64,000 nucleotides of DNA from Candidatus Bathyarchaeota archaeon (GCA_963780185.1 CAWABA010000001.1:128001-192000); one strand, 5' to 3'; positions 1 to 18,379 are shown, counted from the first letter of the stretch. Made by a program: numbers and translations. The notes: generated from the sequence alone by a model not told the origin.

Positions 1-981
1 CTTGCAGGCGCAAGCTACCGAAAACTCCAAAGCGTCCGCGACAACGCAGGCGTCGACGTCACCCTTCCTCAGCTTCCGTTGACACCTAATTTTGCGGTGC
101 CGCCCAACTTCGGTAAAACCCTCGTCTGCACTGTGCATTCGACTTGGCGGGGCGAGGCGGAAGCCATCCGAGGGGAACCTTACAGTCGCCTCAACGCCAA
201 CGAAAAGTTTCTTGTGAGCTTTAACTGGTTTCTGCGTTTTTTTGAGGAAGGCATGCTTCATAGGGCGCGAAGAATTATTGCGGTGAGCCACTTCACAAAA
301 TGGGAACTTACGAACTACTACAAGATTCCAGCGGGCAAAATCAAAGTCATCCACAACGGCGTTGACACCCACAAGTTCCAGCCCGCCGTGGATAAACGGA
401 AGGTCAAGCAGGAACTCGGGTTCAACCCAGACGACATAGCCATCGTGTCCGTCGGCAGACTCTACGCACGCAAAGGTCTCTTCACGCTTATCGAAAGTAT
501 GCCTGCCGTGGTGAAGCGGTTTCCAAAGGCGAAGTTCATCGTTTCAGGCAAGGGACAAAGCGACGAAATGCATAAACTCATCGCTTACGCAGAAAAAATC
601 GGCGTTAAGGATAACCTTGTTTTCACGGGTTACTACCCTGACAAGAAGCTGCCGCTGCTGTACCAAGCCGCAGACGTCTTCGCCTTCAGCACCTTCTACG
701 AGCACCACCCATTCGCCGTCCTCGAAGCCCTCTCAACAGGCTTGCCCGTGGTGACAACATGGGTCGGGGGGATTCCTGAAACCATCGAAAACGGCAAAAA
801 CGGCTTCCTCGTCGAGCCCTTCAATGCAAAACAGTTCTCGGAGAAAATAATTTATTTGCTTGATCACCCCGCGGAAGCAGCGGAGATGGGACGACTTGCG
901 AGAAAAACCATCGTGGAGCAGTATGACTGGCGCATAGTCGTCAAAGATGCCATAAAAGTCTATGACAAAGCGCTAAGCTAA
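1..981 (+). CDS. GT4 family glycosyltransferase (5'-partial)
   Basis: Frame is open from base 1 (LAGASYRKLQ...). Contains IHNGVD, VGRLYARKG and ADVFAFSTFYEHHPFAVLEALSTGLPVV, typical GT-B motifs. Confidence 0.9.
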   Translation, partial: LAGASYRKLQSVRDNAGVDVTLPQLPLTPNFAVPPNFGKTLVCTVHSTWRGEAEAIRGEPYSRLNANEKFLVSFNWFLRFFEEGMLHRARRIIAVSHFTKWELTNYYKIPAGKIKVIHNGVDTHKFQPAVDKRKVKQELGFNPDDIAIVSVGRLYARKGLFTLIESMPAVVKRFPKAKFIVSGKGQSDEMHKLIAYAEKIGVKDNLVFTGYYPDKKLPLLYQAADVFAFSTFYEHHPFAVLEALSTGLPVVTTWVGGIPETIENGKNGFLVEPFNAKQFSEKIIYLLDHPAEAAEMGRLARKTIVEQYDWRIVVKDAIKVYDKALS

Positions 982-1040: not shown

Positions 1041-1334
1041 ATGCAGACCGTTGAGAGGCTAAAGGCAACTTTGGCTTTACACAAGGAAGAGTTAAAGGAA
1101 AAGTTTAGGGTAAAAGAGATCGGGATTTTCGGCTCTTACGTCAGAGGAGAGCAAAAAAAGAGAAGCGACGTAGATGTCCTGGTAACTTTCTACGAGACGA
1201 TTGATCTTTTCACGTTTGTTGAGCTTGAAAACTATTTGAGCGATATTCTAGGGGTTAAAGTTGATCTTGTTATGCAAGAAGGGATTAAGCCTCGGTTGAA
1301 GGAGAGAATTTTAAGCGAGGCAGTTTACGTTTGA
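1041..1334 (+). CDS. mntA: Minimal nucleotidyltransferase antitoxin (MntA type)
   Basis: 97 aa with [19 protein letters not shown] (GSx10DxD). Overlaps the downstream HEPN gene. Confidence 0.9.
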
Positions 1335-1699
1335 GGGATTTTCAAGTCTACGTTGAAGACATAATCGACGCTATTGACAGCATAGAGGCATACACTCAAG
1401 GACTGACTTACGAGGGATTTGTCAACGATAAGAAAACAGTTGATGCCGTCATTAGAAACTTCGAGATTATCGGTGAAGCAACCAAGCAAATCCCTTTGGC
1501 AGTACGGAGAGACTATCCGAAAGTGCCTTGGCGAGATATGGCAGGAATGAGAGACAAGCTGATACATGGATATTTTGGCGTTCAATTAGATGTTGTTTGG
1601 AAAACGGTTAAGGCGCGTTTACCAACCGTGCGGTCTTTGGTAATTGAGGCTTTAGCCAATATGAAAGCTAAGATAAACGCACATCAAAATATCAGATAG
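1331..1699 (+). CDS. hepT: HEPN/DUF86 RNase toxin (HepT type)
   Basis: [13 protein letters not shown] and RDKLIHGY (Rx4HxY). 4-bp overlap with the MNT gene. Confidence 0.9.
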
Positions 1700-1749: not shown

Positions 1750-2715
1750 CTAAGCAATCTGTACTGGTTCGCGTCGATAAGTCATTGTAACCTTCTGGAA
1801 CAGCTTAACTATGTCCAGCGAGCAAAAGAACATTTTAGTCAGGTACTCATGTTGGTAAATCATCATCTGCGCCTTCACAGGCAAGTCAATTCGTGGAGGT
1901 TCAAACCTTCGTTCAACCGTGGAAACCTGAAGCCCTTCAACACTGACGTCATCTTCATGCATACCCGTTTTGTTGGCGATGTAGCCCAGATAGGTTTCTT
2001 TCCAGTTTAGCATCATGACTTTGGCGGCGGCAATATCCACGGCTAGGGCGTCGTTGCCTGTCAGCATTAATCCCATTTTGACGGGTTTGCCTTTTGTTGG
2101 ACCGTTGCCTTCAATGCCGACCCGTGCATCCATAATCGTGAGCTGCGGCTTGAACAGGGTGTAGAGGCGATAGAACACTTCAGGCAGGTAGGGGTGCAGG
2201 TAGATGCGTTTGTTGCTGGGGACGCAGCCGAAGAGGTTTTTGATTGCGCCGCTGTAAGCCATAAACTCGTGCGTTTTCATCAGGGGCAAATCCACGACGG
2301 CGTCGGCGTCAAGGACGGTTTTGGGTAGAAACAGCCGCTTCAATGGGGTGTTGCCCGCAAATTTTACTTCGACGAGTTTGTCTTCGGAGAGGTTGATTAC
2401 GGTGCCGCCTGCAGCCTTCACCGCAGCTTGGGCGCCTGTTTTATCGAAGGCTGTCCAGCAGGGATAATTGAACCCGTTGGATTCGCCTACGATGACTTCG
2501 CTGTTGCCGTCGCGGAGCAAACCGACGAGTTGCCGCATAAGCTCTGGGCTCGTCACCACGCCCGGCAGGTATTCGGGGTGGCTCAAGTTAGGCTTAATGA
2601 AAATCTTGCGTTTGCCGTGCAGCCCTGATTTAGCGACGGCTTCCTTTACAATGTCGCTTATGTCGTCTTTGGCACGGAAAATTTTAACGGTTTGTGGGTT
2701 AGGCACTGTTAGCAC
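1750..2715 (-). CDS. DUF362 domain protein (putative Fe-S protein)
   Basis: IFIKPNL, LPLMKTH, GAIKNLFGC, IMDARVGIEGNGPTKG and DALAVD motifs. Confidence 0.85.
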   Translation of the reverse strand: MLTVPNPQTVKIFRAKDDISDIVKEAVAKSGLHGKRKIFIKPNLSHPEYLPGVVTSPELMRQLVGLLRDGNSEVIVGESNGFNYPCWTAFDKTGAQAAVKAAGGTVINLSEDKLVEVKFAGNTPLKRLFLPKTVLDADAVVDLPLMKTHEFMAYSGAIKNLFGCVPSNKRIYLHPYLPEVFYRLYTLFKPQLTIMDARVGIEGNGPTKGKPVKMGLMLTGNDALAVDIAAAKVMMLNWKETYLGYIANKTGMHEDDVSVEGLQVSTVERRFEPPRIDLPVKAQMMIYQHEYLTKMFFCSLDIVKLFQKVTMTYRREPVQIA

Positions 2716-4126
2716 CTTTCACTCCCGTTATGCAGCCAGGGTCGCCATTAAGCATGTCACCGTTATGGTAAGCTGCTGAACGTGCCCTGCAGCCGCCGCA
2801 GATGAACTTGTAGTCGCATTTGCCGCAGGACCCTTTAAGGTTGGCTCTGTTTCGAAAAGCGTTGAAGAGCGGCGCTTTGAGCCAGATGTCTTGGAACTTT
2901 TCGTTTTTGAGGTTGCCCACGTTTACTGGCAGGAAGACGCATGGGTGGACATCGCCTTGAGGTGACAGTGAGCAGTATAGTCGTCCTGCGCCACATCCGC
3001 CGATGAAGTCGCCAAGCGGAACCGCTTTTTTAGTTACCTTGACTGTTTGCATGTGCGCCAGGGACATGGTTACTTCGCCTGTACCTGATGAACCCTGACA
3101 CTGCAGGGCTACACGCGCAAGCTGAGGCGCAGTGGCTAAGATTGTGGTTTTGCAGCCAGCAGACATACGATTCAGCAGGTAACGCAGCACCTTTTCGCGT
3201 TCTTGAGGCGACAAATCTTGGTCAACATGTGCTTTGCCCCGTCCAGTTGGAATAAAATTGAAGTAGGTGAATCGTTCCGCATGAATTTCCTCGGCTAAAT
3301 CGATAATGGCTGGCAACTCCGCCATGTTATTTTTGCCCACCGTCGTAGCAATGCAAACACACAGGTCAGCTTCAACACAATTCTTAAGGCCAGCCAAAGC
3401 CTTATCAAACGTGCCTGGGACGCCTCGAAACTCATCATGCGTTTTGGCAGAGGCGCCGTCTATACTGACGTCGATGTAGTTTACTTTAGCTTGCTTGATT
3501 TTCTGCACATTCTCTTTTGTTAGCAGAGTGCCGTTTGAAGCAAGTGACACGTAGAGTCCACGGTCAGATGCGTGCCGCGCAACCTCAAAGAAGTCACTGC
3601 GCGTCAAAGGTTCACCTCCGCTGAAAGCCAACGCAGTCACACCAGCATCCGCCAGCTGATCCACAACCGCCAACGCCTGCTCAGTGGTTAATTCTTCCTC
3701 TTGAACTGCGCCGCTGTTGGAGTAGCAGTGCTTGCAGGCTAAGTTGCATTTGTGGGTGAAATCCCAAACAACCAGAAACGGGGCGGAAAGCGACATGGGT
3801 TTTTTTATGCCGAAATAAGCAAACGACCGAACTAAATTAAGAACCGCTGTTCGGGCGTAGCGGTCCGACAGAAGCTTCTCTACTTTTTCACGCTTAAAGT
3901 TGAGGCTTCTGCGCAAAAACTCGATCCAGAAACCCACAACCTGTGAATAGAATCGGCTGCAGGCTTCACATTTTTTGTCCGTTTTGCCCGCGTAATCATC
4001 CAACGCTGCTTCAAGAACTGTCCTTCCGCAAGCAGGGCACTTCTTAAGTGACAGCTTGAGCATCCGCTTAGTCATCGGCAGCGTTATCACTGCATTCCAG
4101 AAGGTATCATGGCTAAGTAAGCTCAT
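2699..4126 (-). CDS. Radical SAM/SPASM protein, similar to the GMGT synthase (Gms) family
   Basis: CNLACKHC, FSGGEP, SPASM GCGAG...PC...CGKCDYKFICGGCRA. The N-terminal extension ending FGIKKPMSLSAPFLVVWDFT matches my recollection of the archaeal Gms-type family. Radical SAM call is firm; Gms assignment is tentative. Confidence 0.75.
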   Translation of the reverse strand: MSLLSHDTFWNAVITLPMTKRMLKLSLKKCPACGRTVLEAALDDYAGKTDKKCEACSRFYSQVVGFWIEFLRRSLNFKREKVEKLLSDRYARTAVLNLVRSFAYFGIKKPMSLSAPFLVVWDFTHKCNLACKHCYSNSGAVQEEELTTEQALAVVDQLADAGVTALAFSGGEPLTRSDFFEVARHASDRGLYVSLASNGTLLTKENVQKIKQAKVNYIDVSIDGASAKTHDEFRGVPGTFDKALAGLKNCVEADLCVCIATTVGKNNMAELPAIIDLAEEIHAERFTYFNFIPTGRGKAHVDQDLSPQEREKVLRYLLNRMSAGCKTTILATAPQLARVALQCQGSSGTGEVTMSLAHMQTVKVTKKAVPLGDFIGGCGAGRLYCSLSPQGDVHPCVFLPVNVGNLKNEKFQDIWLKAPLFNAFRNRANLKGSCGKCDYKFICGGCRARSAAYHNGDMLNGDPGCITGVKGANSA

Positions 4127-4199
4127 CCGAGGCGAGTCTCCTGAAACAGCAACAGGGGAAGAGTAGGTTGGGCGGGGATGTTAAATATTTCCCTAAACG

Positions 4200-4817
4200 T
4201 TAAAATTTGGTTTTCATGATTTTTTCTGCTATTTCCAGGTCTTTGAGCGTGTTAATGTTGAGTAGGACTTCGAGTTCTTGCGTGATTAAGGCATTTGTTT
4301 CGATTTTTCCTTCGCCTTGGATTCTTGCGCCGTTTACAATGTTGACTCCTGACACCGCGTACCATATGCCCATGTACTCGTCGGTGGAGTCAATGGAGAG
4401 CCCCAAAGCTTCGCGGGCTTGAATGGGAACGAAAACCGCATAGAAATCTTTCCCGCAAGCCTCAAACTGGTTGACGATTTTGTCGAGAAACTTGCCTGTG
4501 ACAGCTGGCGAATCCGCTGGAACCGTCAAAACAGGACCCATCAAGTTGGCCATCCGCGTTGCCTGCTTGAGGTCGTTGTGGTACCCGTTGGCGTCGGTGC
4601 AAAGAACCTTCCAGCCCCTCTGCTTGCAGTGCAACTCGGTTTGGGGCGTGTTGGGGCTTGTGACCACGTAAAACTCGGAAACCCGCTCTGCGTCTGCAAC
4701 CGCTTCGACAACCCAGTCCAAGAGCGGTTTGCCCAGAAAGGGCAGAAGCGGCTTCTCCACTGGCAACCCGATGCGTTTGCCCCTGCCGCCAGCCATAATC
4801 AACGCGGGAACCTTCAT
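4200..4817 (-). CDS. CobY-like NTP transferase (paralog 1)
   Basis: ALIMAGGRGKRIGLPVEKPLL, VPADSP, GVNIVNG and NINTLKDL. Homologous to the copy at 15361-15980. Confidence 0.85.
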   Translation of the reverse strand: MKVPALIMAGGRGKRIGLPVEKPLLPFLGKPLLDWVVEAVADAERVSEFYVVTSPNTPQTELHCKQRGWKVLCTDANGYHNDLKQATRMANLMGPVLTVPADSPAVTGKFLDKIVNQFEACGKDFYAVFVPIQAREALGLSIDSTDEYMGIWYAVSGVNIVNGARIQGEGKIETNALITQELEVLLNINTLKDLEIAEKIMKTKF

Positions 4818-5644
4818 AGAAGAATCAACACGCCTGCAAACAAAATAAGCGTAACTGCCCTTGCCACCTCGTTTGTTGCGCCGATGGCGTCGCCTGAAAC
4901 CCCGCCGAAAACTCTCTGCGAAACCTTCGCCATCACAAACGCCACTGGAACGCTAACAAGAACCAGCCCGACGGCAACCAACCCCACGTAAGGTTTGCCT
5001 ATCAAAGCGAAAAACGGGTAAACAATCAAGACTGAGAGCGGGTAGGCGATTGCGTTAAGTTTGGTTTTTGCTTTCTTCAGGAAAATCGAGCCTAACCCCT
5101 TATGCGTGGGTTTGCCGACCCAGACGATGGTAACCATGGATAGTTTGGCTGAGAGTTCGGCGGTGAGGATGGCTCCGAAAGCGTAGAGTGGGTTAATCAG
5201 GAACAAGCCTGCGAACGCGGCAAACTCTACAACCATCGCCAGCAGGGCTCCCCAGTAGGTTACGGTCCAGGCGTGGGCGACCATTTTGCGGTCATGGAGG
5301 TTTCGCAGTCCGAAGGCGTTGCCTAGGTCGATTAAGCCGTCGAAGTGTTGGAGTCCTGTGAGGACCAGTAGGAACGCGACGGTCATGGCGGCGACCGCAA
5401 GCTTCGAAAGCAAGTCAACTGGCAGGGCAACTAACGAGTTAACTAAGCTGAGCAGATAGTGGACTATGATGTTTACGCCGACAAAGTAGGTGCCTGCAAG
5501 CACGCCGATTAAGCCGCCTACGATGGGAAAAAGATAAACGTGCTCTGCAGTGGTGAATATGAAATCTTCTTTTCCGCCCACGGGGATTATGGTTAGGAAA
5601 GACAGCAAATCCCTAAAAGTTTTTATAGCTTTCGCAGGCGACAT
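4814..5644 (-). CDS. CobS-like membrane transferase (divergent paralog)
   Basis: LLSFLTIIP, TGLQHFDGLIDLGNA and FGGVSGDAIGATNE; multiple TM segments. Confidence 0.85.
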   Translation of the reverse strand: MSPAKAIKTFRDLLSFLTIIPVGGKEDFIFTTAEHVYLFPIVGGLIGVLAGTYFVGVNIIVHYLLSLVNSLVALPVDLLSKLAVAAMTVAFLLVLTGLQHFDGLIDLGNAFGLRNLHDRKMVAHAWTVTYWGALLAMVVEFAAFAGLFLINPLYAFGAILTAELSAKLSMVTIVWVGKPTHKGLGSIFLKKAKTKLNAIAYPLSVLIVYPFFALIGKPYVGLVAVGLVLVSVPVAFVMAKVSQRVFGGVSGDAIGATNEVARAVTLILFAGVLILL

Positions 5645-5691
5645 ATACCCTACAACTAGTGAATGGAAATATAGGCTTTGTCGTGGTAGTT

Positions 5692-6621
5692 ATGGGGGAC
5701 CTTAAAGGGAAAAAGATACTTGTAACGGGCGGAGCAGGGTTCATCGGGTTCCACCTATGCAAGAAGCTATCCGGTTTAACGTCTAACTTGACGGTTTACG
5801 ATAACATGTCAAACGGCAAAATGGAAAACGTCAAAGACGCGGCTGTGCCAAATTTTGTGAAAGGCGACATTCTTGACCTAAAAAAACTTCAGTCGCTTGA
5901 AAAACAGGAATTGATCTACCATTTAGCGGCCCAGGTCGTTGTCCCCTACTCCATGGAGAACCCGCTTATCGATTTTGAAACCAACGCCAAAGGAGCGCTG
6001 CATGTGCTTGAGAAAGCCCGCAAAGACGATGCAAAAATGGTTTTCGCGTCCAGCGCAGCGGTGTACGGTAACCCAACTCAGCTTCCGACCACGGAAGATT
6101 ACGGTTTTCACCCTGTCTCATGCTACGGCATGTCTAAGGTGGTCGGCGAAGAATACTGCCAGATGTACAGAGACCAATATCGGTTAGACGTAACCGTCGT
6201 GAGGTTCGCTAACGTGTACGGGCTCAGATGCCACGGCGTCATCCATGACTTCCTCGACAAAATCGCAAAGGACCCGAGCAAGCTAGAGATAATTGGCACG
6301 GGATTGCAGTCACGGGACCTGGTGAACGTCGCCGACGTGGTCGACGCACTCTTAACTGTGGGAGCAGACGAATCAACCAACGGCGAAGTCTACAACATCG
6401 GCATCGGGAAAACCACCAAAATCATCGACCTCGCCCACCTGATGCTCCAAATTCTTAACCTGCAAAACAAAACCAAAGTGACAACAACAGGCGTCTCTTG
6501 GCAAGGAGACATCGACACGATCTGGTTTGACAACTCCAAAGCCAAGAAAGCGTTACATTGGAACCCCAAAATAAGCCTCGAAGAAAGCATCAAAGAAGTC
6601 ATCGCTGACAGGAAACTTTAA
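5692..6621 (+). CDS. NAD-dependent NDP-sugar epimerase/dehydratase (GalE-like SDR)
   Basis: VTGGAGFIG, ASSAAVYG, YGMSK (YxxxK) and RFANVYG. Confidence 0.9.
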   Translation: MGDLKGKKILVTGGAGFIGFHLCKKLSGLTSNLTVYDNMSNGKMENVKDAAVPNFVKGDILDLKKLQSLEKQELIYHLAAQVVVPYSMENPLIDFETNAKGALHVLEKARKDDAKMVFASSAAVYGNPTQLPTTEDYGFHPVSCYGMSKVVGEEYCQMYRDQYRLDVTVVRFANVYGLRCHGVIHDFLDKIAKDPSKLEIIGTGLQSRDLVNVADVVDALLTVGADESTNGEVYNIGIGKTTKIIDLAHLMLQILNLQNKTKVTTTGVSWQGDIDTIWFDNSKAKKALHWNPKISLEESIKEVIADRKL

Positions 6622-7514
6622 TGACTGCTCCAGCCCCAGCCAGAGGACTAATCGCCCTTCTGAGGCTTCCCTACTGGCTGATGACTGGCGGCTTATCTCT
6701 CTTAACAGCTTTTGCCATCACAAAAAACCCCACAGACCTAAACGTACAAACGATTCTGCTGATTTTCTTCTCGATGGCTTTCATAACATCCGCTGGCTTC
6801 GCAGTAAACGACTACTTCGACAGAGAAAGCGACGCATTAATCAAGCCAAAACGCCCCATACCCTCAGGCAGCCTGTCTCTTCGGCAAGTCGTGGCGGTTT
6901 CAAGCGTGCTTTTCACGGCAGGCTTAATCATGGCTTTATTCATCAACCCGCTCAGCTTCACAATAATCGCCGCAGACTCCGCCTTGCTGCTGGTTTACTC
7001 AACAGTTGTAAAGCGCAAGTCAGGGTTCGCAGCCAACGTCTTGGTGGGAATCCTAACAGGCACCGCCTTTCTCTTCGGGGAAGCAACGATCTCCAGCCCC
7101 CCAACCGTAAGCATAATTTCCCTGAGCCTGTACCCGATAGCGTTAGGCACAGTAGGCGGCAACATCCTGCGCGATGTGCTGAGCCTTGACGGTGACTCAA
7201 AAACGGGGTACCCGACGCTTCCGCAGAAAATCGGCATAAACGATTCAGCGAAGGTGGCGGCTGGGTTTTTCTTGTTAACTGGTTTTCTTGTGCCGCTTCC
7301 ATTCTTCGTTGGCGAGGGCAACTTTGACTTTTTCTATCTGGTGCCCATCCTTGTTTGGAGTGTGCTTCTGATTTACTCTTCAATTCGCCTAGCAACGGCG
7401 TCTTCGAATGTTTTGAATGTACGCAAGTATGAACGGGTAATTACCATGTCGATGATTCTGCTTCCGTTAGCGTTGATTCTTGAGGCAGTGTCCCACATGA
7501 TTGGAGGACTATAG
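6621..7514 (+). CDS. UbiA prenyltransferase, DGGGP synthase-like
   Basis: NDYFDRESDALIKPKRPIPSG and RDVLSLDGDSKTGYPTLP; about 8 TM segments. Confidence 0.85.
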   Translation: MTAPAPARGLIALLRLPYWLMTGGLSLLTAFAITKNPTDLNVQTILLIFFSMAFITSAGFAVNDYFDRESDALIKPKRPIPSGSLSLRQVVAVSSVLFTAGLIMALFINPLSFTIIAADSALLLVYSTVVKRKSGFAANVLVGILTGTAFLFGEATISSPPTVSIISLSLYPIALGTVGGNILRDVLSLDGDSKTGYPTLPQKIGINDSAKVAAGFFLLTGFLVPLPFFVGEGNFDFFYLVPILVWSVLLIYSSIRLATASSNVLNVRKYERVITMSMILLPLALILEAVSHMIGGL

Positions 7515-7515
7515 A

Positions 7516-8982
7516 GTGAGCGAAACAAAAAGTATCTGTCCAGAATGCCAGAAAAAAATAGACGCCCAACTGCGGCAAGCTAACGGCAAAATAAAAATCA
7601 CCAAACAATGCCCCGAACACGGCGACTTCGAAGCCACCCACTGGCAAAGCACACCCGTCTTCAACCACATGCAAACCTACGACCAATTCCAGTACCTCGG
7701 CGACTTAAACGCCCCCAAAAACCCAGAAGGCTGCCCCTACAAATGCGAAACCTGCACCGAACACGCCTCGGGTACGGTCATCGGCGTCATTGACGTGACG
7801 AAACGTTGCAACCTTCGCTGCGCAATTTGCTTCTCCACGTTTCCCGAGCAAGGAACCGACTATGAGCCAACCAAAGAGCACCTTGTAAAAATGCTTGAGT
7901 TCGTAAGTCAAGCTAACCCCAAGCCGCCAGCCATCCTGTTCTCAGGCGGAGAACCTCTCGAACGGGAGGACATGCCTGAAATCATCGGTGTTGCCCACAA
8001 ACTAAAGTTCATGACTATTTTGGCAACCAACGGGACCCATTTGGTTGACACTCCAGGGTTGGCGAAGAAACTGAAAGCCAATGGCTTAAACATTGTTTAT
8101 TTATCGTTTGACAGTTTTCACGACGATTTTAACACAAAGATTCGGGGAAAAGCGCTGCTTGAGGAGAAACTGAAGGCTATTGAAGTTTGCCGCAAATACG
8201 ACATGGAGATCATTTTAGTTAACACGTTGATGAAGAGCCTAAACGACAAAGAAGTCGGCGACATGATACGGTTCGCCGCAAAAAACACCGACATAGTCCG
8301 CGGATTAATCTTCCAACCCATCGCGTTCACCGGCAGAGCCACCGAGAACCCTTTCCGCGAAAACTTCCGCGAATGGTCCTTCGCAGAAGACGTTGAAAAA
8401 CAAACAAACGGCGAAATCAAAGCCACCGACCTATTCCCCATGTCCGTTATGACTTCGCCGATCAAGATAATGCGCAAATTCATGCAGAAGCCATGGCCCC
8501 TCTTCTCCTGCAGCCCACAGTGCGGCATCGTAAACTGGATCTACGTTTCAAAAGAGGGCAAAATGTTCCCCATTAACCGCTTCGTCAACTTTGACCGCTT
8601 CTTCTCCACCATCAGAAAAACCGCTGAATCCGCAGAATCCAGAGGCAAATTCTCGCTGCTTTCCTCACTGTTTATGGCGTCCATGCTTTCTATGAACATG
8701 TTGCTGGTGACGCAGGAAGTGGGCATGCTGACCTTGGTGAACTCGGTTATGCGTATGCATCTTTCGCCGTCGTATCAGTCGCTTGGCAAAATCCGCCGAA
8801 GAATCTTTCTGCTGGGCTGCATGGCGTTCATGGACAGCTACAACTTTGACGTTAACCGTGTCCGACGTTGCGTCGTGCACTACATCACGCCTGACCTGAA
8901 AATCATACCGTTCTGCGCCTACAACAACATCCACAGAGTCGCCATCGAGAAACAATACGCAGAAAAACAAAAAAAGCGATAG
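7516..8982 (+). CDS. tes: Radical SAM tetraether lipid synthase-like protein (Tes/GDGT-MAS, MJ0619 family)
   Basis: N-terminal TKSICPEC...KQCPEHG, GCPYKCETC, CNLRCAIC, FQPIAFTGR, CSPQCG, MDSYNFDVNRVRRCVVHY and IIPFCAYN. GTG start preceded by GGAGG. Confidence 0.8.
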   Translation: MSETKSICPECQKKIDAQLRQANGKIKITKQCPEHGDFEATHWQSTPVFNHMQTYDQFQYLGDLNAPKNPEGCPYKCETCTEHASGTVIGVIDVTKRCNLRCAICFSTFPEQGTDYEPTKEHLVKMLEFVSQANPKPPAILFSGGEPLEREDMPEIIGVAHKLKFMTILATNGTHLVDTPGLAKKLKANGLNIVYLSFDSFHDDFNTKIRGKALLEEKLKAIEVCRKYDMEIILVNTLMKSLNDKEVGDMIRFAAKNTDIVRGLIFQPIAFTGRATENPFRENFREWSFAEDVEKQTNGEIKATDLFPMSVMTSPIKIMRKFMQKPWPLFSCSPQCGIVNWIYVSKEGKMFPINRFVNFDRFFSTIRKTAESAESRGKFSLLSSLFMASMLSMNMLLVTQEVGMLTLVNSVMRMHLSPSYQSLGKIRRRIFLLGCMAFMDSYNFDVNRVRRCVVHYITPDLKIIPFCAYNNIHRVAIEKQYAEKQKKR

Positions 8983-9182
8983 TTCAACGGCCACGTTGAT
9001 ATCTGTCTTAGATAAGGTGTGGATGCCCTAGATAATTAGGCAAAATTCACTCTTGACCTTTTCCAGCGATGTCGTGCCCAACACCCTATTCCAGACATTT
9101 TTGGCTGTTCTTTTGGTGGAACAGGCTGTTCTTTAGGGAGAGTAATATCCGACTTTGAGACATTGTCTTTGAGCGAGTAGAA

Positions 9183-9947
9183 ATGCAATTGATGAAACGC
9201 CAAAAGATTGTTATCGCTTTTATCGTATCTGCATTGCTTTTAAGTTCAATCTTAGCTGTGACCCATGGCAACTTCAGCACTCGACAATCTGCAGCCACCT
9301 TAGAACTGCCAACTCCTCTGCCAACCCCTCTATCGTTTCAAGTTCAGGTTATTTTCCCCGTAGATAACCAGACGTATGGCATTTACAATGGACCCGAAAA
9401 CATTACATCAGACGAAACAGCACATCAAACTACATACAGCCTAATACTGCCGCTGAACATAACCGTGAACCAAGAAACTTCAAGAATTACCTATAGTCTG
9501 GATGGGTCTGACAATATTGATTTCAACGAAAATACAACTGCTGCTCTGACCTTGCGCTATGGAGTTCACAACTTAACAGCTTATGCCACCAACATCGAAG
9601 GTGTAGCTACTGAATCCAGCATAACATTTACTGTGGGTTACGATTATCTTCCTATCAATAAAATAACCCTGGAGCAGGTGCAGGAAGCCACCCGTTACTT
9701 TGAAAGCAGAGGATTAAGCGTCCAAGTCGACACAGTAGACGAAAGCAAATGGCAAAACCTCGGCCACTTTCTCTACGCTGGCTCGGTCGATGTGGTTTCA
9801 AAAGAGAATTTTGCGGATGTTGTAATTGCACGTGGCATAGACACAATTTGGCTCAGACAAGATTCCAATTATATTAGTTTTTACGCCAACTATTACGATA
9901 ATTCATGGTTACCGACAGTCTACGAATATTATGCAACCTTAACCTAA
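9183..9947 (+). CDS. Hypothetical secreted or membrane-anchored protein with an Ig-like segment
   Basis: N-terminal hydrophobic helix. ITYSLDG...GVHNLTAYATN..S.ITFTV resembles an Ig-like module. Lower GC than neighbours. Confidence 0.65.
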   Translation: MQLMKRQKIVIAFIVSALLLSSILAVTHGNFSTRQSAATLELPTPLPTPLSFQVQVIFPVDNQTYGIYNGPENITSDETAHQTTYSLILPLNITVNQETSRITYSLDGSDNIDFNENTTAALTLRYGVHNLTAYATNIEGVATESSITFTVGYDYLPINKITLEQVQEATRYFESRGLSVQVDTVDESKWQNLGHFLYAGSVDVVSKENFADVVIARGIDTIWLRQDSNYISFYANYYDNSWLPTVYEYYATLT

Positions 9948-9978
9948 CCAATATGGTCACTTTTTAGAAAGCTCAAGC

Positions 9979-10503
9979 TTAACTTACGACTTGAATCGGC
10001 AACACACAGAAGTCATACGTAAACTGCCATGAGCCGCCGTTCAAAGAATTGTAACTGTACAGTTCAAAAACAACCCAGTAGCTGCCAACCTGATTTTCAG
10101 TCACCGTGATTGACTGATGCCAGCTTTTCCCATCCGCCAAAGTCGTGTTGTAGGTTGCGGTGGGTTGGGTATTGACTGGGGATGAGTCAAGGTTGCTGGT
10201 TATTTTCACTTGAACTTGGTATTGCACGGTCCACCCCATGTTGTTGATAACTGTAAGCGGTACACTAAAGGTGCTGTTCTGGTTAGCAACCAGAAGCTGC
10301 GGGTAATTCTCCGCTTTGTTCTGTGCATCAAGAAGGTAAATCGTGCTGTACCCTTTCGGCGCGGGTTTGAAGAACACGTAGTAGCCTGCAAGCATCGACG
10401 CAATGATGATTAAGGCCAGAAAGATAGCGACTATGTAGCCTTTATCATCGTTTATGCCTATTTTCTTTCCAATGTTTTTGACAGACTCTAACCGTATCCG
10501 CAT
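9979..10503 (-). CDS. DUF1616-like membrane protein
   Basis: Single TM followed by YSTIYLLD..K.AENYP, and VVFELY near the C-terminus. Confidence 0.7.
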   Translation of the reverse strand: MRIRLESVKNIGKKIGINDDKGYIVAIFLALIIIASMLAGYYVFFKPAPKGYSTIYLLDAQNKAENYPQLLVANQNSTFSVPLTVINNMGWTVQYQVQVKITSNLDSSPVNTQPTATYNTTLADGKSWHQSITVTENQVGSYWVVFELYSYNSLNGGSWQFTYDFCVLPIQVVS

Positions 10504-11182
10504 CTAGAAATCCCTTGAATATAGTGCTAAATATTTCGATACCTGACTTAAATGGTTTAAGCTTGGTCTTGCCGTATATCCGGGGCTTGTAGGTCGTGGG
10601 GATTTCAACCATATTGTACCCAACCTTGGCGAACTGCACCAGCATTTCCGTGGCAAACGCCATGTCCCCTTCTACCAGCGGCACGTTGTCAATGCATTCG
10701 TGTGATATTGCTCGGAAACCTGATTGGGTGTCGCTGAGTATTTGGCTGTAGAAGAAGTCGTAAACCATTGTTATGATTTTGTTTCCGATGAAGTTGGTGA
10801 ATCCCATCGCTTTTTTCGGGTCGAACATGCGGGTGGCTAAAACCATGTCCGCGTCCTTCTCAAGCATCCGCTCAACTAAGCGGTTGATGTGTTTTACTTC
10901 GTAGGTTCCGTCACCGTCAACCATAACGATGATGTTTCCCTTCGCGTTTTTCATGCCTGTCCGCAAGGCTATTCCGTAGCCGCGTCTTGGCTCAATAATT
11001 AGCCTGCAAAAATTTGTGTCTTTAACAAGTTCCATTGTTCCGTCGGTGGAGTTGCCGTCGACAACGATGATTTCGTTGGGGTACGCTAACTCTTTGTGGA
11101 TAGTGTTGACTGCCTCAAGTATGTTTCCTGCTTCGTTAAGTGTCGGAATGACCACCGAAACCATTTCGACTTTTGATGTCAT
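10445..11182 (-). CDS. GT2 glycosyltransferase, Dol-P-sugar synthase-like
   Basis: SVVIPTLNE, VVDGNSTDGT, RRGYG, MVDGDGTY and DTQSGFRA. Likely start is MTSKVEM. Confidence 0.9.
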   Translation of the reverse strand: MTSKVEMVSVVIPTLNEAGNILEAVNTIHKELAYPNEIIVVDGNSTDGTMELVKDTNFCRLIIEPRRGYGIALRTGMKNAKGNIIVMVDGDGTYEVKHINRLVERMLEKDADMVLATRMFDPKKAMGFTNFIGNKIITMVYDFFYSQILSDTQSGFRAISHECIDNVPLVEGDMAFATEMLVQFAKVGYNMVEIPTTYKPRIYGKTKLKPFKSGIEIFSTIFKGFLDADTVRVCQKHWKENRHKR

Positions 11183-11226
11183 AGCTAAACTTTCCCTGCG
11201 AAGGCTATACTGTTTCCACATCTTGG

Positions 11227-12384
11227 TTAAATAAGCTCTTCGTATATTTCCACGAGACGTTCAACGTTTCTGTCCCAGCTGTATTTTTCTTCAACCGCAG
11301 CTCGAAGCTCCGGCTTACGAGAAGATAAATCATCACTTGAATATTCAAAGATTGCTTTCGCCATAGGCTCAGGCTGGTTGGGCGGCACAAGAGCACCGAA
11401 GTCATCAGTCAAGATTTCGCGGATTCCGCCAACGTCCGTGGCTACAACTGGCAAGCCGCAAGCCATGGCTTCCAGCGCAACCAAAGGCAAACCTTCCCCG
11501 GATTTAGATGGCAACACAAAAAAGTCAGCCGCGTTATAGCAAAACGGCAAATCCTCATCGCTGACAAACCCGGCAAGCCGAAAGTTCTTTTCTATCCCTA
11601 ACTCCCGAATTCTGGTTTGAACGCCGTTTTGGTCGGGTCCTTTTCCAACGACGAGGAAAACAACGTTCGGGTTCTTTTTGATGGCGAGGTTTGCGCTTTC
11701 AATAAGGGTGTCGATGCCGTTCTTGTAAACCAGACGCCTCACAGTTATCGCTACCTTTGCGCTCTTCGGAATCCCAAATTTAGCTCGCATTTCCTCCCGT
11801 TTTCCCGGCAGATGCCTGAAATGCTCCAAGTCAACGCCGTTGTGGAGGACTTTGATTTTGTCTGGTTTTGCACCTAAGCTTAGGACGTACTCTTTAGTCG
11901 CGTTGCTTACAGTAATTATTCTGTCAGCTTCCCTGAGTGTCTCTTTCCCAACGGCTAGGTCGTTGAGGCGCTCGACGTTGTCAAACATGCTGTCGTACTG
12001 GATGAACGTGTTATGCTGGGTTAAAACGAAGGGCTTGTGGTATCTTTTGGCAAGTTTAGCGGCGATAAGCGAGGTTAGGTAGGGGTGACCGTGCGCGTGG
12101 ACTATGTCGCTGCCTTTTACGGCGCTGAGGAAGGTTCCAAGGCTTGTCGGCGTCGGGATAGAGTAGGGTATGCCGAGGCGGAAGCCCGTGTTTAGAGACT
12201 CATAGCATTCGACAGGTATGCCATCAACTACGTAGGTTTTTGGGGTGTCGATGCGGTTTGTAACAACCGTGGGTTTAAAGTTCAGGTTCATCAGCCGTTT
12301 GCTCTGTTCATAAACAACCCTTTCTATCCCGCCAACATGGGGCAGAAAAGTATGCGTAACAATGCACAGCCTTGTTTGAACCAT
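11227..12384 (-). CDS. GT4 family glycosyltransferase
   Basis: FLPHVGGIE, LHNGVD and ADFFVLPSKSGEGLPLVALEAMACGLPVV. Start placed at MVQTRL. Confidence 0.9.
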   Translation of the reverse strand: MVQTRLCIVTHTFLPHVGGIERVVYEQSKRLMNLNFKPTVVTNRIDTPKTYVVDGIPVECYESLNTGFRLGIPYSIPTPTSLGTFLSAVKGSDIVHAHGHPYLTSLIAAKLAKRYHKPFVLTQHNTFIQYDSMFDNVERLNDLAVGKETLREADRIITVSNATKEYVLSLGAKPDKIKVLHNGVDLEHFRHLPGKREEMRAKFGIPKSAKVAITVRRLVYKNGIDTLIESANLAIKKNPNVVFLVVGKGPDQNGVQTRIRELGIEKNFRLAGFVSDEDLPFCYNAADFFVLPSKSGEGLPLVALEAMACGLPVVATDVGGIREILTDDFGALVPPNQPEPMAKAIFEYSSDDLSSRKPELRAAVEEKYSWDRNVERLVEIYEELI

Positions 12385-12733
12385 GGAGCCCAACAGCGTA
12401 AACTCCCAGCCAACATACGATAATAAGCTTTCTGGTAAATCTGCAGACAAGTGTTGCCGTCGGGAAATTTCAAATGGAAACATTTAATTGAAATCGGCGT
12501 TTTGCATCGAATTTTTTCTTGTATGTTTGTTGGCTGCTTAAACCGTAATGCTTATATGAAAAGGTTGGATAAACCAACCAAACATGGAATTGATAATTTG
12601 CTGAACATCGAGAAAAAATCGCTTGTTCGAGTCAAACTTCTATCGAAGGGCAAGTTATCTGCATATTTGACTGCCAAAACCCTATTTAGTTGTTCACCCG
12701 TTTCTGGACTTTTTCCCCTTCAATCGTTTGCAA

Positions 12734-12783: not shown

Positions 12784-12804
12784 ATTTAGGGAGGACAAAA
12801 TGAA

Positions 12805-13492
12805 ATGAAAGTTGTTGCTTCTTGGAGCGGCGGCAAAGACAGCTGCCTACGCATATTACTTGGCAACCCAGCAAGGCTGCGAAGTAGTCAAAATCTTGAC
12901 CATGATGATGAGCAAAGAAAAATCAAACTTCCACATGATACCAGCAGGCATCCTTGACGCCCAATCCGACGCAATAGGCATTCCCATAGTGAAACAGCAG
13001 GCAACTCCAAAAACCTACGAAGATGACTTCAAAGCTGCGCTGCGACAGTTCAAAGCCGAAGGCGCCGAAGGCTTAGTCACAGGCGACATCTACGAGGTAT
13101 CGGGGCATGAAGAGGGTTGGCTGGGCAGGGTACTTAAAGAAGTCGGGTTGAAACCGATTAAGCCGCTGTGGATGCTTGACACGAAGCAGATTTACCTAGA
13201 CTACTTAAAAACGGGTTTCAAAGCCACGGTGGTTCGCACTAACCTGGAGAAGCTGGGCGTGGAGTGGCTTGGGAGGGTGCTGGACAGAAAATTCTACGAC
13301 GACATCCTCAAACTCGGCAACGTTGACCCATGCGGCGAAGGCGGCGAATACCACACCGTCATCACGGATGGACCCACGTTTAAGAAAAAGATTGAAATCC
13401 TAGAAACACAAAAGCACAAGCTAGACGGCGGCTTCGGATGCCTCGAAATCAAAAGGTTCGAAGTCAAGCCGAAAGGCAAGGGTAAAGCGTAG
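12805..13492 (+). CDS. DUF71/Dph6-like PP-loop ATP pyrophosphatase, B12-associated group (frameshift near 12848)
   Basis: ATG at 12805 gives MKVVASWSGGKDSC, then shifts into the ORF with VTGDI and DPCGEGGEYHT. Lies directly upstream of cobT. Confidence 0.85.
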
Positions 13493-13493
13493 A

Positions 13494-14595
13494 ATGGACC
13501 AATCACTCGACGTAATAATCGCGAATAACGAGTTGAAAGCGAAGGCTTTCCTCGACGAAATCTCAGGCAAAAACCCTCTTTTCATCTGCACAATAGCAAC
13601 AACTGAAACCGGCAAAATCGCGGGAATATCTGCGGCTGGTGCGAACCCTGAGTTCACGGATTATACTCCTCCCGCCGATGCTGAATTGCTCCTTCTTGGC
13701 AGATGCAAATCCATCAGCGGCGTCCCCATAACTCCTGACGGTATCCCCACGCCTGGGTTGATCACAAGGTCTGCTCTGCAGCTTGCCGACATTCCCGTGT
13801 TGATTGCCAGCGGCGGCGTTGAGGATAAAGCCGCAGATTCCCTTTTTGGATTTAGGCGGAAGTCCCGGCAGAGACATTCGAAGCGGCAACGCAGTTGACA
13901 ATGTTGCGGAAGTTATTGAACGAGCAAAGACTGCGGGGAAAAACCTCGCGAAAGCTGTGGATTACCTTGTGATTGGCGAGAGCATCCCCGGTGGGACAAC
14001 AACCGCGCTTGGCGTGTTGTCGGCGCTGGGTGTGAAGGCGGAGGGAAAAGTAAGCAGCACCTTGCCCAACAATCCCCATAGCTTGAAGGCTGAGACGGTT
14101 CGGGCGGGTTTGGCGGCTGCAGGCGAACGTTTCGGCAGTTTAGCCAAAGACCCTGTTAAGGCTATCTCCTGCGTTGGCGATCCGATGATGGCAGCGTTTA
14201 CAGGTTTGGTTGTCGGCGCGGCGGGGCAGGTTCCTGTTTTGATGGCGGGTGGAACGCAGATGAGCGCTGTTTTAGCCCTCATTAATGCTTTGCAGCCCGA
14301 TGTTCTCTGCAACGTGGCGGTTGGCACGACCCGGTGGGTTGCAAAGGACAAGTCGTCTGACCTCAAAGGCATAGTGAAGCAGTTCTGTGATGTGCCGATT
14401 TTAGCCGCGGACCTGAACTTTGGCGGTTCACGTTTCCCAGGGCTGCAAATTTATGAGACTGGTTTGGTGAAGGAAGGGGTGGGCGCAGGCGGCGCTTCAA
14501 TTGCGGCGATGGCTAAGCTTGGCGGCGCTGTGACGGCTGACCTATTGCTTAAAGAGATAGAGCGCAATTATGGTTTGCTGATGGGTTTGAAGTGA
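13494..14595 (+). CDS. cobT: Archaeal NaMN:lower-base phosphoribosyltransferase (frameshift near 13820)
   Basis: GISAAGA...YTPPADAELL and PTPGLIT in the first frame; GESIPGGTTTA, MAGGTQM and VKEGVGAGG in the second. Confidence 0.9.
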
Positions 14596-14596
14596 G

Positions 14597-15370
14597 ATGG
14601 TTATTAAAGAGCTCAAGAACCTTCTGTCTTTCCTCACAATCTTTCCCGTAGCAATGGACAAGGACATGCTTACTGACTGCGCAAAAGGCATGTGGACTTT
14701 TCCGCTTATCGGCGCTTTCCTCGGTTTAATTGCAGGAGTTTTCGGCTGGGTAGCTGACCAATTTGTGCCAGGCATCGTTGTGGGCGCTTTGGTCTTGGCG
14801 GTTCTGCTGCTTATAACTGGGCTTCACCACACGGACGGGCTGCTGGATTTCGGCGACGGCGTCATGGCTCACGGCACACCCCAACACAAAATTGAGGTTA
14901 TGCATGACCAGCTAACAGGCGCAGGCGGCTTATCGTTGGGCATCATGACGATGCTGATTACCGCTTTAGCTATCGGGCAAATCAGCGGCAACGGACTCTT
15001 CAAAATCCCTCTAATCGTCGGCGGCATCATCGCCGTTGAGGCTTCAGCTAAGCTTTCGATGACCGTGATGGCTTGGGCTGGAAAATCGGTTCATCAAGGC
15101 ATGAACTCATCGTTCCTCGAAGCCATGAGCGGCAGCAAAGGCACCCTGCGTTTGGTCGCTGCGCTGGTGCTTTCTTTCGCGGTGGCTTTGCCTCTGCTGG
15201 GTTGGGCAGGCGCCTTCGTCGTTTTAACGGCTGTGGTTACGAGTTTGGTGATGGTTGCAGTTGCCCACAGAAACTTCGGCGGGGTCACAGGCGACGTTTT
15301 CGGAGCCACAAACGAGATAACCCGAATGGTCTGCGTGATTGTTTTGTTGGCGGTGGCTGCTTGGGCGTAA
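14597..15370 (+). CDS. cobS: Adenosylcobinamide-GDP ribazoletransferase (cobamide synthase)
   Basis: TGLHHTDGLLDFGDG, VMHDQLTGAGG and FGGVTGDVFGATNE; in an operon with cobT. Confidence 0.9.
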   Translation: MVIKELKNLLSFLTIFPVAMDKDMLTDCAKGMWTFPLIGAFLGLIAGVFGWVADQFVPGIVVGALVLAVLLLITGLHHTDGLLDFGDGVMAHGTPQHKIEVMHDQLTGAGGLSLGIMTMLITALAIGQISGNGLFKIPLIVGGIIAVEASAKLSMTVMAWAGKSVHQGMNSSFLEAMSGSKGTLRLVAALVLSFAVALPLLGWAGAFVVLTAVVTSLVMVAVAHRNFGGVTGDVFGATNEITRMVCVIVLLAVAAWA

Positions 15371-15980
15371 CTGCGCTTGTGATGGCTGGCGGCAAAGGAA
15401 CCCGCATGCAAATCCGCGAGGAAAAACCCTTAATCAAAGTCTGCGGCAAACCCGTTATCGAATACGTGATTGCGGCGTTGCAGCACGCAAAGAAAATCAA
15501 CCGCATCATCGTGGCAACAAGTGCATGTACGCCTAAAACCGCCCATCACCTGAGCAGCTTTCCCGTGCAGGTGGTTGAGACGCCTGGGCAAAGACTATGT
15601 TTCGGACATGGGCTATGCGAGCCAAAACCTCAAACTCGGCGTTTTCTTAGCTATCGCGGCTGATTTGCCTTTGGTCACGGGCGAAGTGCTCGACGCAATT
15701 GTTGAACGTTACGAATGCTGCGGCAAACCCGCGTTGACCGTTGCGGTTCCCCTCGAAACTAAAGAGGCGGCTCGGAATGAGCGTAGAGTACTCGTTTAAG
15801 ATGGATGATAAAGACGTGGTTCCCGTCGGCATCAACGTGATTGACGGTCGCAAACGGTACGGCGACGAATGGCTCGACCAAGACATCTACCTGCTGGACC
15901 TAGAAGAACTCGCAGTCAACATCAACACCGTGCATGAGCTGCAACTCGCCGAACATTTACTTGCCAATCGGAAACAATGA
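15361..15980 (+). CDS. cobY: GTP:adenosylcobinamide-phosphate guanylyltransferase (two frameshifts, near 15590 and 15760)
   Basis: MGVTALVMAGGKGTRM..EKPL, AADLPL, VGINVIDG and NINTVHEL are spread over three frames. Confidence 0.85.
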
Positions 15981-15984
15981 CTTT

Positions 15985-16074
15985 TTAGTTTTTTGAAGAT
16001 TTACTTTCCAGCACTTCCTTGAGCGTTTCTTTCATTTTCCGAGCGTCGATGTCCAGAATCGGGGATTCATGGAT
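15985..16074 (-). pseudogene. Orphan 3'-end relic of the EndoIV-like gene
   Basis: Translates as IHESPILDIDARKMKETLKEVLESKSSKN*, versus ICESPVLDIDARKMKETLTKVLKERL... at the end of the 16744-17633 gene. Confidence 0.85.
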
Positions 16075-16273
16075 CAAGGCTTGTTAGCTAATGAAAGAGA
16101 GTAAATCCCTTTTGGGAGTCCATTGTCAATAGTTTCGGGTTGGTGGTGATAGTGGTGGTAATGGTCACAATAATGCTTTTAATCTGGGGTAAATGAATAA
16201 ACAGATGTGGTATGAGTTGGGCAATCAATATGATGGGAAGACTTAAAAGAAAGAATACATTATTAAGATTTAG

Positions 16274-16582
16274 ATGTTAAATATGCCTGTCAAAAGCATA
16301 GACGAGAAAAAACTCAATCTGATCGATGCATCAGAAGTCCCACCCGGAAGGATAAGAGTCACAAGATGGCAAGTTATTTTTGATGAGATTCCTGCGGGAA
16401 AGGCTTGGGTTGTTACTGAGAAAGAGATTAGTTTCACAGCTGTTAGATGTTCTCTTTATGAGCTTCAACGTAAAGGTCAATTTAAGAATCTTGCCGCGCG
16501 TAAGGTCAAGGAACCTGACGGTTCCTACAGGCTATACGTGATCAATACAACCGAGGTAAAACAAAAGAAGTTAGCAGTATAG
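16274..16582 (+). CDS. Hypothetical 102-aa basic protein (cargo)
   Basis: Clean AT-rich ORF with an AT-rich upstream region, lying between two copies of the EndoIV-like 3' end. Confidence 0.65.
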   Translation: MLNMPVKSIDEKKLNLIDASEVPPGRIRVTRWQVIFDEIPAGKAWVVTEKEISFTAVRCSLYELQRKGQFKNLAARKVKEPDGSYRLYVINTTEVKQKKLAV

Positions 16583-16743
16583 TAACGGTAATCTCGGAAA
16601 CGGATGAGCGCCCAAACTGGTTGCGCCACATCTCGCGAATGCGGCGAGCAGGATTGAGATGGTTCACTCGATGTTCTCCGCTTTCGAGACTACCTTACAA
16701 CTTACTATTATCTTTTGTAATCAGTTATAAAGCAAGTGCTCCT

Positions 16744-17633: not shown

Positions 17634-17678
17634 ATCCCATCCTTCTCTTTTGGGTGGTCAATAAAGATTCCTTAACCG

Positions 17679-18288: not shown

Positions 18289-18379
18289 CTTTCCTATCCA
18301 ACAGTTTTCCCGTTGATACTATTTAATGCTTGCAATAAATTTCAATTTTTCCCAGCAAATCTACAGCGTATGACGCTCA

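Follow-up and report, generated by a model that had tools for sequence, protein, structure and literature searches.

A stretch of 64,000 nucleotides from Candidatus Bathyarchaeota archaeon (GCA_963780185.1 CAWABA010000001.1:128001-192000), hereafter called the window, carries at positions 1750 to 12384 a block of genes in which tetraether-lipid enzymes stand together with paralogs of the enzymes that build the nucleotide loop of cobamides. The block is best explained as a membrane-lipid island that has been conserved within a single order of Bathyarchaeia, and the group that hosts it consists of uncultured soil and gut archaea. All positions are counted on the window, and the genes were assigned by listing its open reading frames (ORFs) and by scanning it against Pfam and NCBIfam. 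Two tightly packed operons diverge from a shared promoter region of 47 bp (5645..5691). The operon on the minus strand consists of the genes for CobS' (4814..5644), a polytopic membrane phosphotransferase that is a divergent paralog of CobS, CobY' (4200..4817), a nucleotidyltransferase of the CobY family with a MobA-like fold, a radical SAM/SPASM protein (2699..4126; PF04055 and PF13186), which is a probable ortholog of Gms, the synthase of glycerol monoalkyl glycerol tetraethers (GMGTs), and, as its last gene, a DUF362 protein (1750..2715; PF04015, 168.9 bits). The CobY' and CobS' genes overlap by 4 nt, and the DUF362 gene overlaps the radical SAM gene by 17 nt. The operon on the plus strand encodes a nucleotide-sugar epimerase/dehydratase-like protein of the short-chain dehydrogenase/reductase type (5692..6621; PF01370, 180.6 bits), UbiA' (6621..7514), a prenyltransferase paralog resembling digeranylgeranylglyceryl phosphate (DGGGP) synthase, and Tes2 (7501..8982), a divergent second tetraether synthase. 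The epimerase gene starts at the conserved ATG at 5692; the GTG at 5659 is not kept as coding sequence among relatives. A preliminary description of this DNA had given the same content, order and packing for the two operons and for the GT4, GT2 and DUF1616 genes that flank them, and its account is borne out here.

The two operons stay together in related genomes. Among the best 80 of 200 relatives, which came from a CobS'-specific pattern scan of species-level genomes, the epimerase gene lies beside CobS' in 80 loci, a CobY-type gene in 78, UbiA' in 78, Tes2 in 77 and the radical SAM/SPASM gene, counted within 10 kb of CobS', in 61, and the missing neighbours are mostly at contig ends. DUF362 is found in 51 of these loci. 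In five loci, the pair of radical SAM/SPASM and DUF362 genes has been shifted to the Tes2 side with the linkage kept. In all 13 relatives that were fetched, no more than about 5.5 kb separates epimerase-UbiA'-Tes2 from CobS'-CobY'. The two parts are immediate neighbours in 11 of them, and two loci of genus g18 are rearranged, with a distance of 2-5 kb between the parts. In a third lineage (G611), whose CobS' is 45% identical, UbiA' is directly divergent from CobS'; the epimerase was not found in the G611 cluster. Because the arrangement recurs in 13/13 relatives and 80/80 scanned loci, it is beyond chance, and the linkage to lipid genes on which the preliminary description built its proposal is thus conserved across related genomes. 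In two g18 loci (L050:10989-12419 and L051:7631-9082), a flavoprotein gene of the dihydrolipoyl-dehydrogenase type (739.7 bits, cut-off 592) is located between Tes2 and CobS'. Five entries titled Limnocylindrales, Nitrososphaerota or Methanocella (L063, L105, L116, L117 and L129) carry a Bathyarchaeia-type cluster with 62-80% CobS' identity, and these odd titles are probably binning or labelling errors in public metagenome-assembled genomes.

The genes are also present and absent together. In a sample of 151 genomes of the class, high-scoring CobS' (above 145 bits) was found in 15, namely the window's genome, 11 of the 15 other members of its family f1 and all three genomes of genus g18 (family f5). 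The same 15 genomes carry Tes2 (Tes2-type scores above 470 bits), UbiA', a second type of CbiB (CbiB') and a high-scoring subclade of the radical SAM/SPASM (Gms) protein. The 14 positives with a full-length CobS' also hold a canonical CobS of at most 100 bits, giving two matches each; in the fifteenth (G148), CobS' is seen only as a fragment of 63.6 bits at a contig end, beside the canonical copy. In a phylum sample, 22 of 401 genomes are positive, all belonging to f1 or g18. Among 201 genomes of the order, CobS' is present in 55 and Tes2 in 56, with both in 52 and neither in 142, and all 7 discordant genomes are 69-94% complete. Within f1, the calls for CobS' and Tes2 coincide without exception, in 34 of 34 positive genomes and in 20 of 20 negative ones. 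One might suppose that the two operons are functionally unrelated neighbours held together by inertia in a narrow clade. All positive genomes do fall into one order, so that the co-occurrence reflects few independent events, and in f1 the genes to either side of the block generally keep their order. However, the proteins have diverged between lineages to 40-57% identity with the linkage kept through three arrangements, the length of the promoter gap and its central box are conserved, and presence and absence agree throughout f1. An unrelated neighbourhood is therefore hardly likely.

Of 91 adjacent pairs of CobS' and epimerase genes, 90 are separated by a gap of 46-51 bp. At the centre of the gap lies one conserved AT-rich box, ATATAG(R)(Y)TTT(R)TCGT, about 25-30 nt from both start codons. 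The strict form of the box occurs in 83 of the 91 pairs and near-variants occur in seven of the remaining eight; the eighth (L053) has a gap of 0 bp. The box may be a TATA box shared by the two operons, and the region would then act as a bidirectional promoter for leaderless transcripts.

CobS' lies above the cut-offs of its families, clearly for PF02654 (93.2 bits against 23.2) and barely for TIGR00317 (112.4 bits against 110). The genome holds exactly one further CobS, the canonical copy encoded at 14597-15370, which scores 139.3 and 161.8 bits and is 32.6% identical to CobS'. The preliminary description had pointed to phylogeny as a way of separating the two copies. CobS' is indeed monophyletic and stands apart from canonical CobS with 100% support on a long stem, its sister group not being resolved in the tree, and only 17 proteins among 1.84 billion representatives are related to it at E<=1e-30. 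CobS' resembles CobS in being polytopic and in keeping the His and the first two Asp residues of loop 2, the E/K/R positions and the GxxGDxxG motif of loop 6, with G248, G251, D252 and G255 present in 94-100% of CobS' sequences; compared with 117 diverse canonical CobS proteins, it retains 27 of 32 widely conserved columns. In contrast, the third Asp of loop 2, present in 116 of those 117 proteins, has been replaced by Asn, giving HxDxxxDxxN in 16 of 16 CobS' sequences, and the M-x-D-x-x-x-G stretch conserved in canonical CobS is altered as well. CobS' further differs in being always an extra copy and in being tied to lipid genes, not to cobT. The D82A, D86A and D89A substitutions in Salmonella CobS are each described as abolishing function in vivo, with no growth, in a study whose authors suggest that the HxDxxxDxxD loop contacts adenosylcobinamide-GDP (AdoCbi-GDP) (PMC8092220). 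The data support a changed reaction, so that CobS' would not be a standard cobamide synthase. A link to butanetriol and pentanetriol tetraethers shared with Methanomassiliicoccales was considered and set aside, so few proteins being related to CobS' at that threshold and the best 80 CobS' loci being of Bathyarchaeia type; no Methanomassiliicoccus genome was searched directly.

The Tes2, UbiA' and radical SAM/SPASM genes point to ether lipids. Tes2 exceeds the cut-off for tetraether synthase (NF045702, 462 bits against 450), and the g18 copy scores 491.7 bits; the label "Tes-like" was therefore an understatement as to family. The main Tes of the organism, encoded on a different contig, reaches 654 bits and shares 37.6% identity with Tes2, so that Tes2 is a second copy and not the ortholog of the main enzyme. 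In common with Tes, also named GDGT-MAS, Tes2 has the Zn ribbon, the radical SAM motif and all 12 Cys residues that are invariant in canonical Tes (15 Tes2 against 21 canonical class-level sequences). It differs in being a second copy confined to block-positive genomes, to which the Tes2-type scores are restricted, in having changed 41 of 113 canonical-invariant columns, and in having 18 positions fixed to residues that never occur in canonical Tes. UbiA' had been called DGGGPS-like. Its nearest solved structure is the DGGGP synthase of M. jannaschii (6m31, 104 bits, against 50.8 bits for chlorophyll synthase), which agrees with that call; however, UbiA' stays below both equivalog cut-offs (NF009523, 164.9 bits against 269; NF009521, 159 bits against 296). 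Its first Asp-rich motif reads NDYFDRESD in translation. Two further DGGGPS-like UbiA genes are present in the genome; the better-scoring one is a stronger DGGGPS candidate than UbiA', with 252.8 and 193.3 bits in the two models, but also stays below the cut-offs. A relationship of UbiA' to decaprenyl-phosphate phosphoribosyltransferase was rejected, because that match (52.3 bits) covers the N-terminal third only, against 159-165 bits over the full length for the DGGGPS type. Among solved structures, archaeal UDP-glucose 4-epimerases come closest to the epimerase (3ehe, 176.7 bits).

The radical SAM/SPASM protein has 475 residues, with an N-terminal extension of about 110 residues and the two Pfam domains at residues 123-277 and 378-438. 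Its best NCBIfam match is AhbD (311 bits, cut-off 500). For two of its orthologs, which share 79% and 83% identity with the protein of the window, 90%-identity cluster-mates appear in the published sheet "Archaeal domain-Gms-homologs" (PMC11186832), where these are listed at E 6e-106 with 41.28% and 38.89% identity. Through these cluster-mates in a table built against the query Gms, the protein is a probable Gms ortholog, and the published list thus backs the earlier call of "Gms-like". Six accessions of its orthologs were looked for in five PNAS Gms dataset files, which do not list all archaeal homologs, and none was present. As far as Gms is described in PMC11186832 and PMC11214058, the protein shares with it an N-terminal domain followed by radical SAM and SPASM domains and a length of more than 420 residues. 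It differs from Gms in that its cluster-mates are only 39-41% identical to the query and that its subclade is confined to block-positive genomes. These genomes carry only the cluster-linked type, with ortholog scores of 613-953 bits; block-negative Bathyarchaeia have more distant full-length homologs of 330-480 bits.

The linkage, the shared promoter region, the co-occurrence and the altered loop of CobS' support a functional tie of CobS' with the UbiA', Tes2 and Gms lipid enzymes, and this points to a membrane molecule not described so far. We tentatively propose, as a possibility falling a little short of an even chance, that CobS' transfers a CobY-activated, GDP-dependent phospho-group onto a specialised ether lipid. 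A CobY-type enzyme would use GTP to convert a phosphate monoester into a GDP-activated diester. The likeliest monoester would be an amino-alcohol phosphate supplied by a CobD-like enzyme, either free or amide-linked to a carboxylate by CbiB'. CobS' in the membrane would then move the phospho-group to a hydroxyl of an isoprenoid ether lipid with release of GMP. UbiA', Tes2 and Gms would make or remodel this acceptor lipid, and sugars would be added or tailored by the epimerase together with the GT4 and GT2 enzymes from the flanks. In the simplest model, a soluble activator, which may be either CobY paralog, would recognise a common phospho-handle, and CbiB' and CobS' would carry the new specificity. 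The share of canonical-invariant columns retained at class level is graded, with 20 of 23 in CobY', 35 of 45 in CbiB', 24 of 35 in CobS' and 72 of 113 in Tes2, and such graded divergence fits a generic activator working with specific membrane transferases.

The Kennedy pathway consists of a nucleotidyltransferase and a CDP-alcohol phosphotransferase. The route proposed here would share its logic, in that a phosphate monoester is activated by a nucleoside triphosphate and transferred to an alcohol while a nucleoside monophosphate leaves, and the CofC/CofD pair of F420 synthesis offers the same analogy of activation followed by transfer. The protein families of both systems are unrelated to CobY' and CobS'. 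Ordinary CDP-alcohol phosphotransferases are also present in block genomes, with 1-3 matches each.

Several observations weigh against this proposal. Its substrates and product are all inferred. GGGPS is single-copy in 5 of 5 genomes, one of them block-negative. Because GGGPS lacks a second copy, the dedicated second lipid pathway that the preliminary description had proposed is not a complete one. Beyond the small number of independent events, the cluster is found within the order almost exclusively in genomes that have canonical cob genes as well. In family f1, the block and the canonical cob operon are adjacent (31 of the 80 loci), and therefore the shared descent of one island could explain part of the co-occurrence.

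CobY' raises another objection. It scores 122.5 bits with TIGR00454 (cut-off 174.7) and 100.6 bits with NF045495 (cut-off 250); canonical Bathyarchaeial CobY also stays below both cut-offs, with 138.1 and 120.3 bits. The nearest solved structures of CobY' are the M. jannaschii CobY entries 2mzb and 3rsb, and by its retained columns it is near-canonical. In the CobY tree, CobY' forms a clade of its own with the g18 copies, apart from canonical CobY, with 99% support in the Shimodaira-Hasegawa-like approximate likelihood-ratio test (SH-aLRT). In 14 loci of one subclade, a canonical-type CobY lies beside CobS', and CobY' lies in the cobT-cobS operon and is followed by CbiB'. In g18, a single CobY-family gene is present in 3 of 3 genomes; this gene, a member of the CobY' clade, is a neighbour of CobS', and therefore it must also be able to serve B12 synthesis if g18 completes cobamides. 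At the G611 locus, no canonical CobY was found after cobS. It had been argued that the extra CobS/CobY pair is free of B12 duty because a canonical operon lies nearby; given the single gene of g18 and the operon swaps, this is not established.

CbiB' and a CobD-like gene widen the duplication. In a Pfam CbiB survey of the same 151 class genomes, two CbiB copies were found only in block-positive genomes, and every one of the 15 positives carries CbiB', the lower-scoring type (241-257 bits), which is absent from the other 136 genomes; canonical CbiB copies score 321-336 bits. CbiB' exceeds both family cut-offs (NF002281, 279.2 bits against 273; TIGR00380, 236.3 bits against 165.9), which fits a corrinoid substrate. 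Its gene is not part of the block; in this genome it lies about 30 kb upstream. A gene for a B12-binding radical SAM enzyme adjoins it in 9 of 9 loci, and in 5 of these 9 it also has an Amidohydro_3 gene as a neighbour. A gene for a CobD-like decarboxylase (274-281 bits in f1, cut-off 290.55) is found a few kb beyond the GT4a gene, which forms the block's outer flank, and is accompanied by a gene for a DUF4234 membrane protein. In g18, the only cobD that passes the cut-off (299 bits) adjoins the DUF4234 gene and converges on CobY'. The distribution of CbiB' and the CobD-like gene beside the cluster therefore indicate that the whole cobamide loop pathway has been duplicated. Accordingly, of the earlier picture of a repurposed CobS/CobY pair, the distinct and altered CobS' stands, but the duplication is wider than the pair. 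Upstream of the window, the run G000 C1:100775-119400 contains at least 6 genes for B12-binding radical SAM enzymes clustered around CbiB', together with Amidohydro_3, AsnC-type regulator, S-adenosylmethionine (SAM) methyltransferase and catalase genes, and it may be a lipid- or cofactor-modification island.

These observations raise the main alternative, namely that CobD', CbiB', CobY' and CobS' form a second system for assembling or remodelling the cobamide loop, which is merely co-located with the lipid genes. Such a system might serve another salvaged corrinoid or another type of loop or lower ligand, and the co-location could come from the common descent of one island or from co-regulation with B12-dependent radical SAM enzymes that modify lipids. 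The genomes do belong to corrinoid salvagers, because none of the 5 genomes searched yielded CobQ/CbiP. CobT is single-copy, and all four loop steps are either duplicated or common to both sets. The scores of CbiB', its place beside B12-binding radical SAM genes, the near-canonical columns, swaps and sole g18 copy of CobY', the position of cobD in g18 and the abutting cob operon all speak for this alternative. However, CobS' lacks the third Asp of a motif of which every Asp is essential in Salmonella. Furthermore, the promoter region shared with epimerase-UbiA'-Tes2 has been kept in 90 of 91 pairs, and CobS' without Tes2, or the reverse, occurs in no complete genome. To our knowledge, canonical CobS needs no paralogs for different lower ligands, and we know of no requirement for B12 in Tes2, UbiA' or Gms (in the case of Tes, as judged from its family description). 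On balance we regard a second cobamide loop system as rather unlikely.

A corrinoid-lipid conjugate would reconcile the near-canonical CbiB' and CobY' with the altered CobS'. Here, CbiB' and CobY would build AdoCbi-GDP, and CobS' would join the cobinamide-phosphate to a lipid hydroxyl instead of to alpha-ribazole, so that the corrinoid would be anchored in the membrane. This fits the strict linkage of CobS' to lipid enzymes and explains why the block is present only where canonical cob genes exist. However, we know of no such molecule. A literature search, which left bioRxiv and PDF supplements outside its scope, yielded no paper with a matching proposal and none that connects a CobS paralog with Tes or with the lipids of Bathyarchaeia. 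Moreover, the altered loop of CobS' is the one suggested in PMC8092220 to contact AdoCbi-GDP, a point in favour of a change of the donor and not of the acceptor. We consider the conjugate improbable.

The canonical B12-salvage operon lies on the plus strand at 12812..15971 and comprises a DUF71/Dph6-like gene at its head (12812-13492), cobT (13494-13898 / 13804-14595), cobS (14597-15370) and cobY. As assembled here, cobT is broken by one frameshift and cobY is spread over three frames; compared with three relatives, cobY has single-base insertions near 15590 and 15765. Only cobS is intact among the cob genes of the operon. Public sequencing runs were sought for 12800-17700, and none was listed. 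Thus the operon reported earlier as complete is present, but its completeness holds for the lineage and not for the sequence as assembled. CobT is whole (366 aa) in a relative of the same genus, and at least 10 other genes are split in the ~56 kb annotated around the cluster. Because of this, indel errors of the assembly are likelier than targeted decay and are the probable cause of the frameshifts. The rate is roughly one per 5-6 kb, with none in the 10.7-kb cluster itself. The sites lie at 13494-14595, 15361-15971, 16744-17633 and 19981-20833 of the window and in G000 C1:96000-128000 and C9:155995-156847, and the genes affected are cobT, cobY (twice), AP_endonuc_2, an ABC ATPase, Amidohydro_3, a B12-binding radical SAM gene, GT2, CobD-like, cbiB1 and RnfD-like. 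In 31 of the 80 loci, a canonical CobS is found no farther than 10 kb from CobS'.

Three DUF71/Dph6-like PP-loop paralogs are present, at 12812-13492 of the window, G000 C1:114116-114853 and C1:120759-121505. The first of them heads the cobT-cobS-cobY operon here and in relatives, and it fits the "DUF71-B12" salvage subgroup predicted in PMC3541065. A split gene for a xylose-isomerase-like TIM barrel protein (PF01261; 16744-17633, minus strand) converges on the canonical operon; the cobamide-remodelling enzyme CbiR belongs to the same superfamily according to PMC7733943, the likeness being one at superfamily level. About 2.4 kb downstream of the operon, on the minus strand at 18342-20833, a gene for a CbiQ-type transmembrane component of an energy-coupling factor (ECF) transporter lies with two ABC ATPase genes, one of them split; together they may encode a cobalt- or corrinoid-related transporter.

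On the outer side of the block, the GT4 glycosyltransferase gene GT4a (79..981, plus strand; PF00534, 143 bits) has a counterpart in 51 of the 80 related loci. An MNT/HepT toxin-antitoxin pair (1041-1699, plus strand), found in 6-8 of the 80 loci, lies between GT4a and DUF362. On the other side, an ORF of 254 codons (9183-9947, plus strand) between Tes2 and DUF1616 matched no Pfam or NCBIfam family, has a counterpart in 2 of the 80 loci and has weak partial copies elsewhere in the genome. The toxin-antitoxin pair and this ORF are lineage-specific inserts inside the block. Then follow, all on the minus strand, a gene for a DUF1616 membrane protein, matched in its C-terminal part (9979..10503; PF07760, 54.3 bits; 32 of 80 loci) and of similar length in relatives, a GT2 gene resembling AglJ and dolichyl-phosphate-hexose transferases (10445..11221; PF00535, 92.1 bits; TIGR04182, 156.6 bits, cut-off 325) and a second GT4 glycosyltransferase gene, GT4b (11227..12483; PF00534, 148.5 bits; 58 of 80 loci). 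A GT2 match was counted in 66 of the 80 loci, a figure that merges this gene with a second GT2 beyond GT4a. For DUF362, no solved relative was found at E<=0.01; DUF362 and the N-terminal domain of LarA are placed in a common Pfam clan in PMC11770544. In one relative (L041:6627-8902), two genes for Acyl_transf_3 membrane O-acyltransferases lie between the radical SAM/SPASM and CobY genes, which hints at an acylated glycoconjugate as the product.

Bathyarchaeia are among the most abundant archaea in sediments and soils, yet a 2025 paper (PMC11868695) states that their membrane lipids still lack a direct measurement. The elements that are new here are the co-distribution of CbiB', the CobD-like neighbour, the lost Asp of CobS', the swaps of CobY' and the frameshifts of the canonical operon. 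The preliminary description had asked for a check for other copies in the genome, and a main Tes, two more UbiA genes and one canonical CobS were found. Overall, it is slightly more likely than not that archaea of the Bathy-6 type have turned CobD', CbiB', CobY' and CobS' into a lipid-building pathway, by a head-group or linker route or by a corrinoid tether. In the former case, the pathway would be a third, GDP-dependent route that places an amino-alcohol-phosphate head group or linker onto a special tetraether made with Tes2, UbiA' and Gms; in the latter, a corrinoid would be held covalently by a membrane-spanning lipid. The block offers a compact gene set that could be expressed heterologously in the hosts in which Tes and Gms have been studied. 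If the product were a cobamide after all, corrinoid salvagers could run two parallel loop-assembly systems, and predictions of B12 capacity from genomes would be affected because CobS', CobY' and CbiB' are automatically annotated as ordinary cob genes. If a CobS'-dependent lipid is made, it would represent a new way of attaching polar groups to archaeal lipids and could supply a lineage-specific biomarker.

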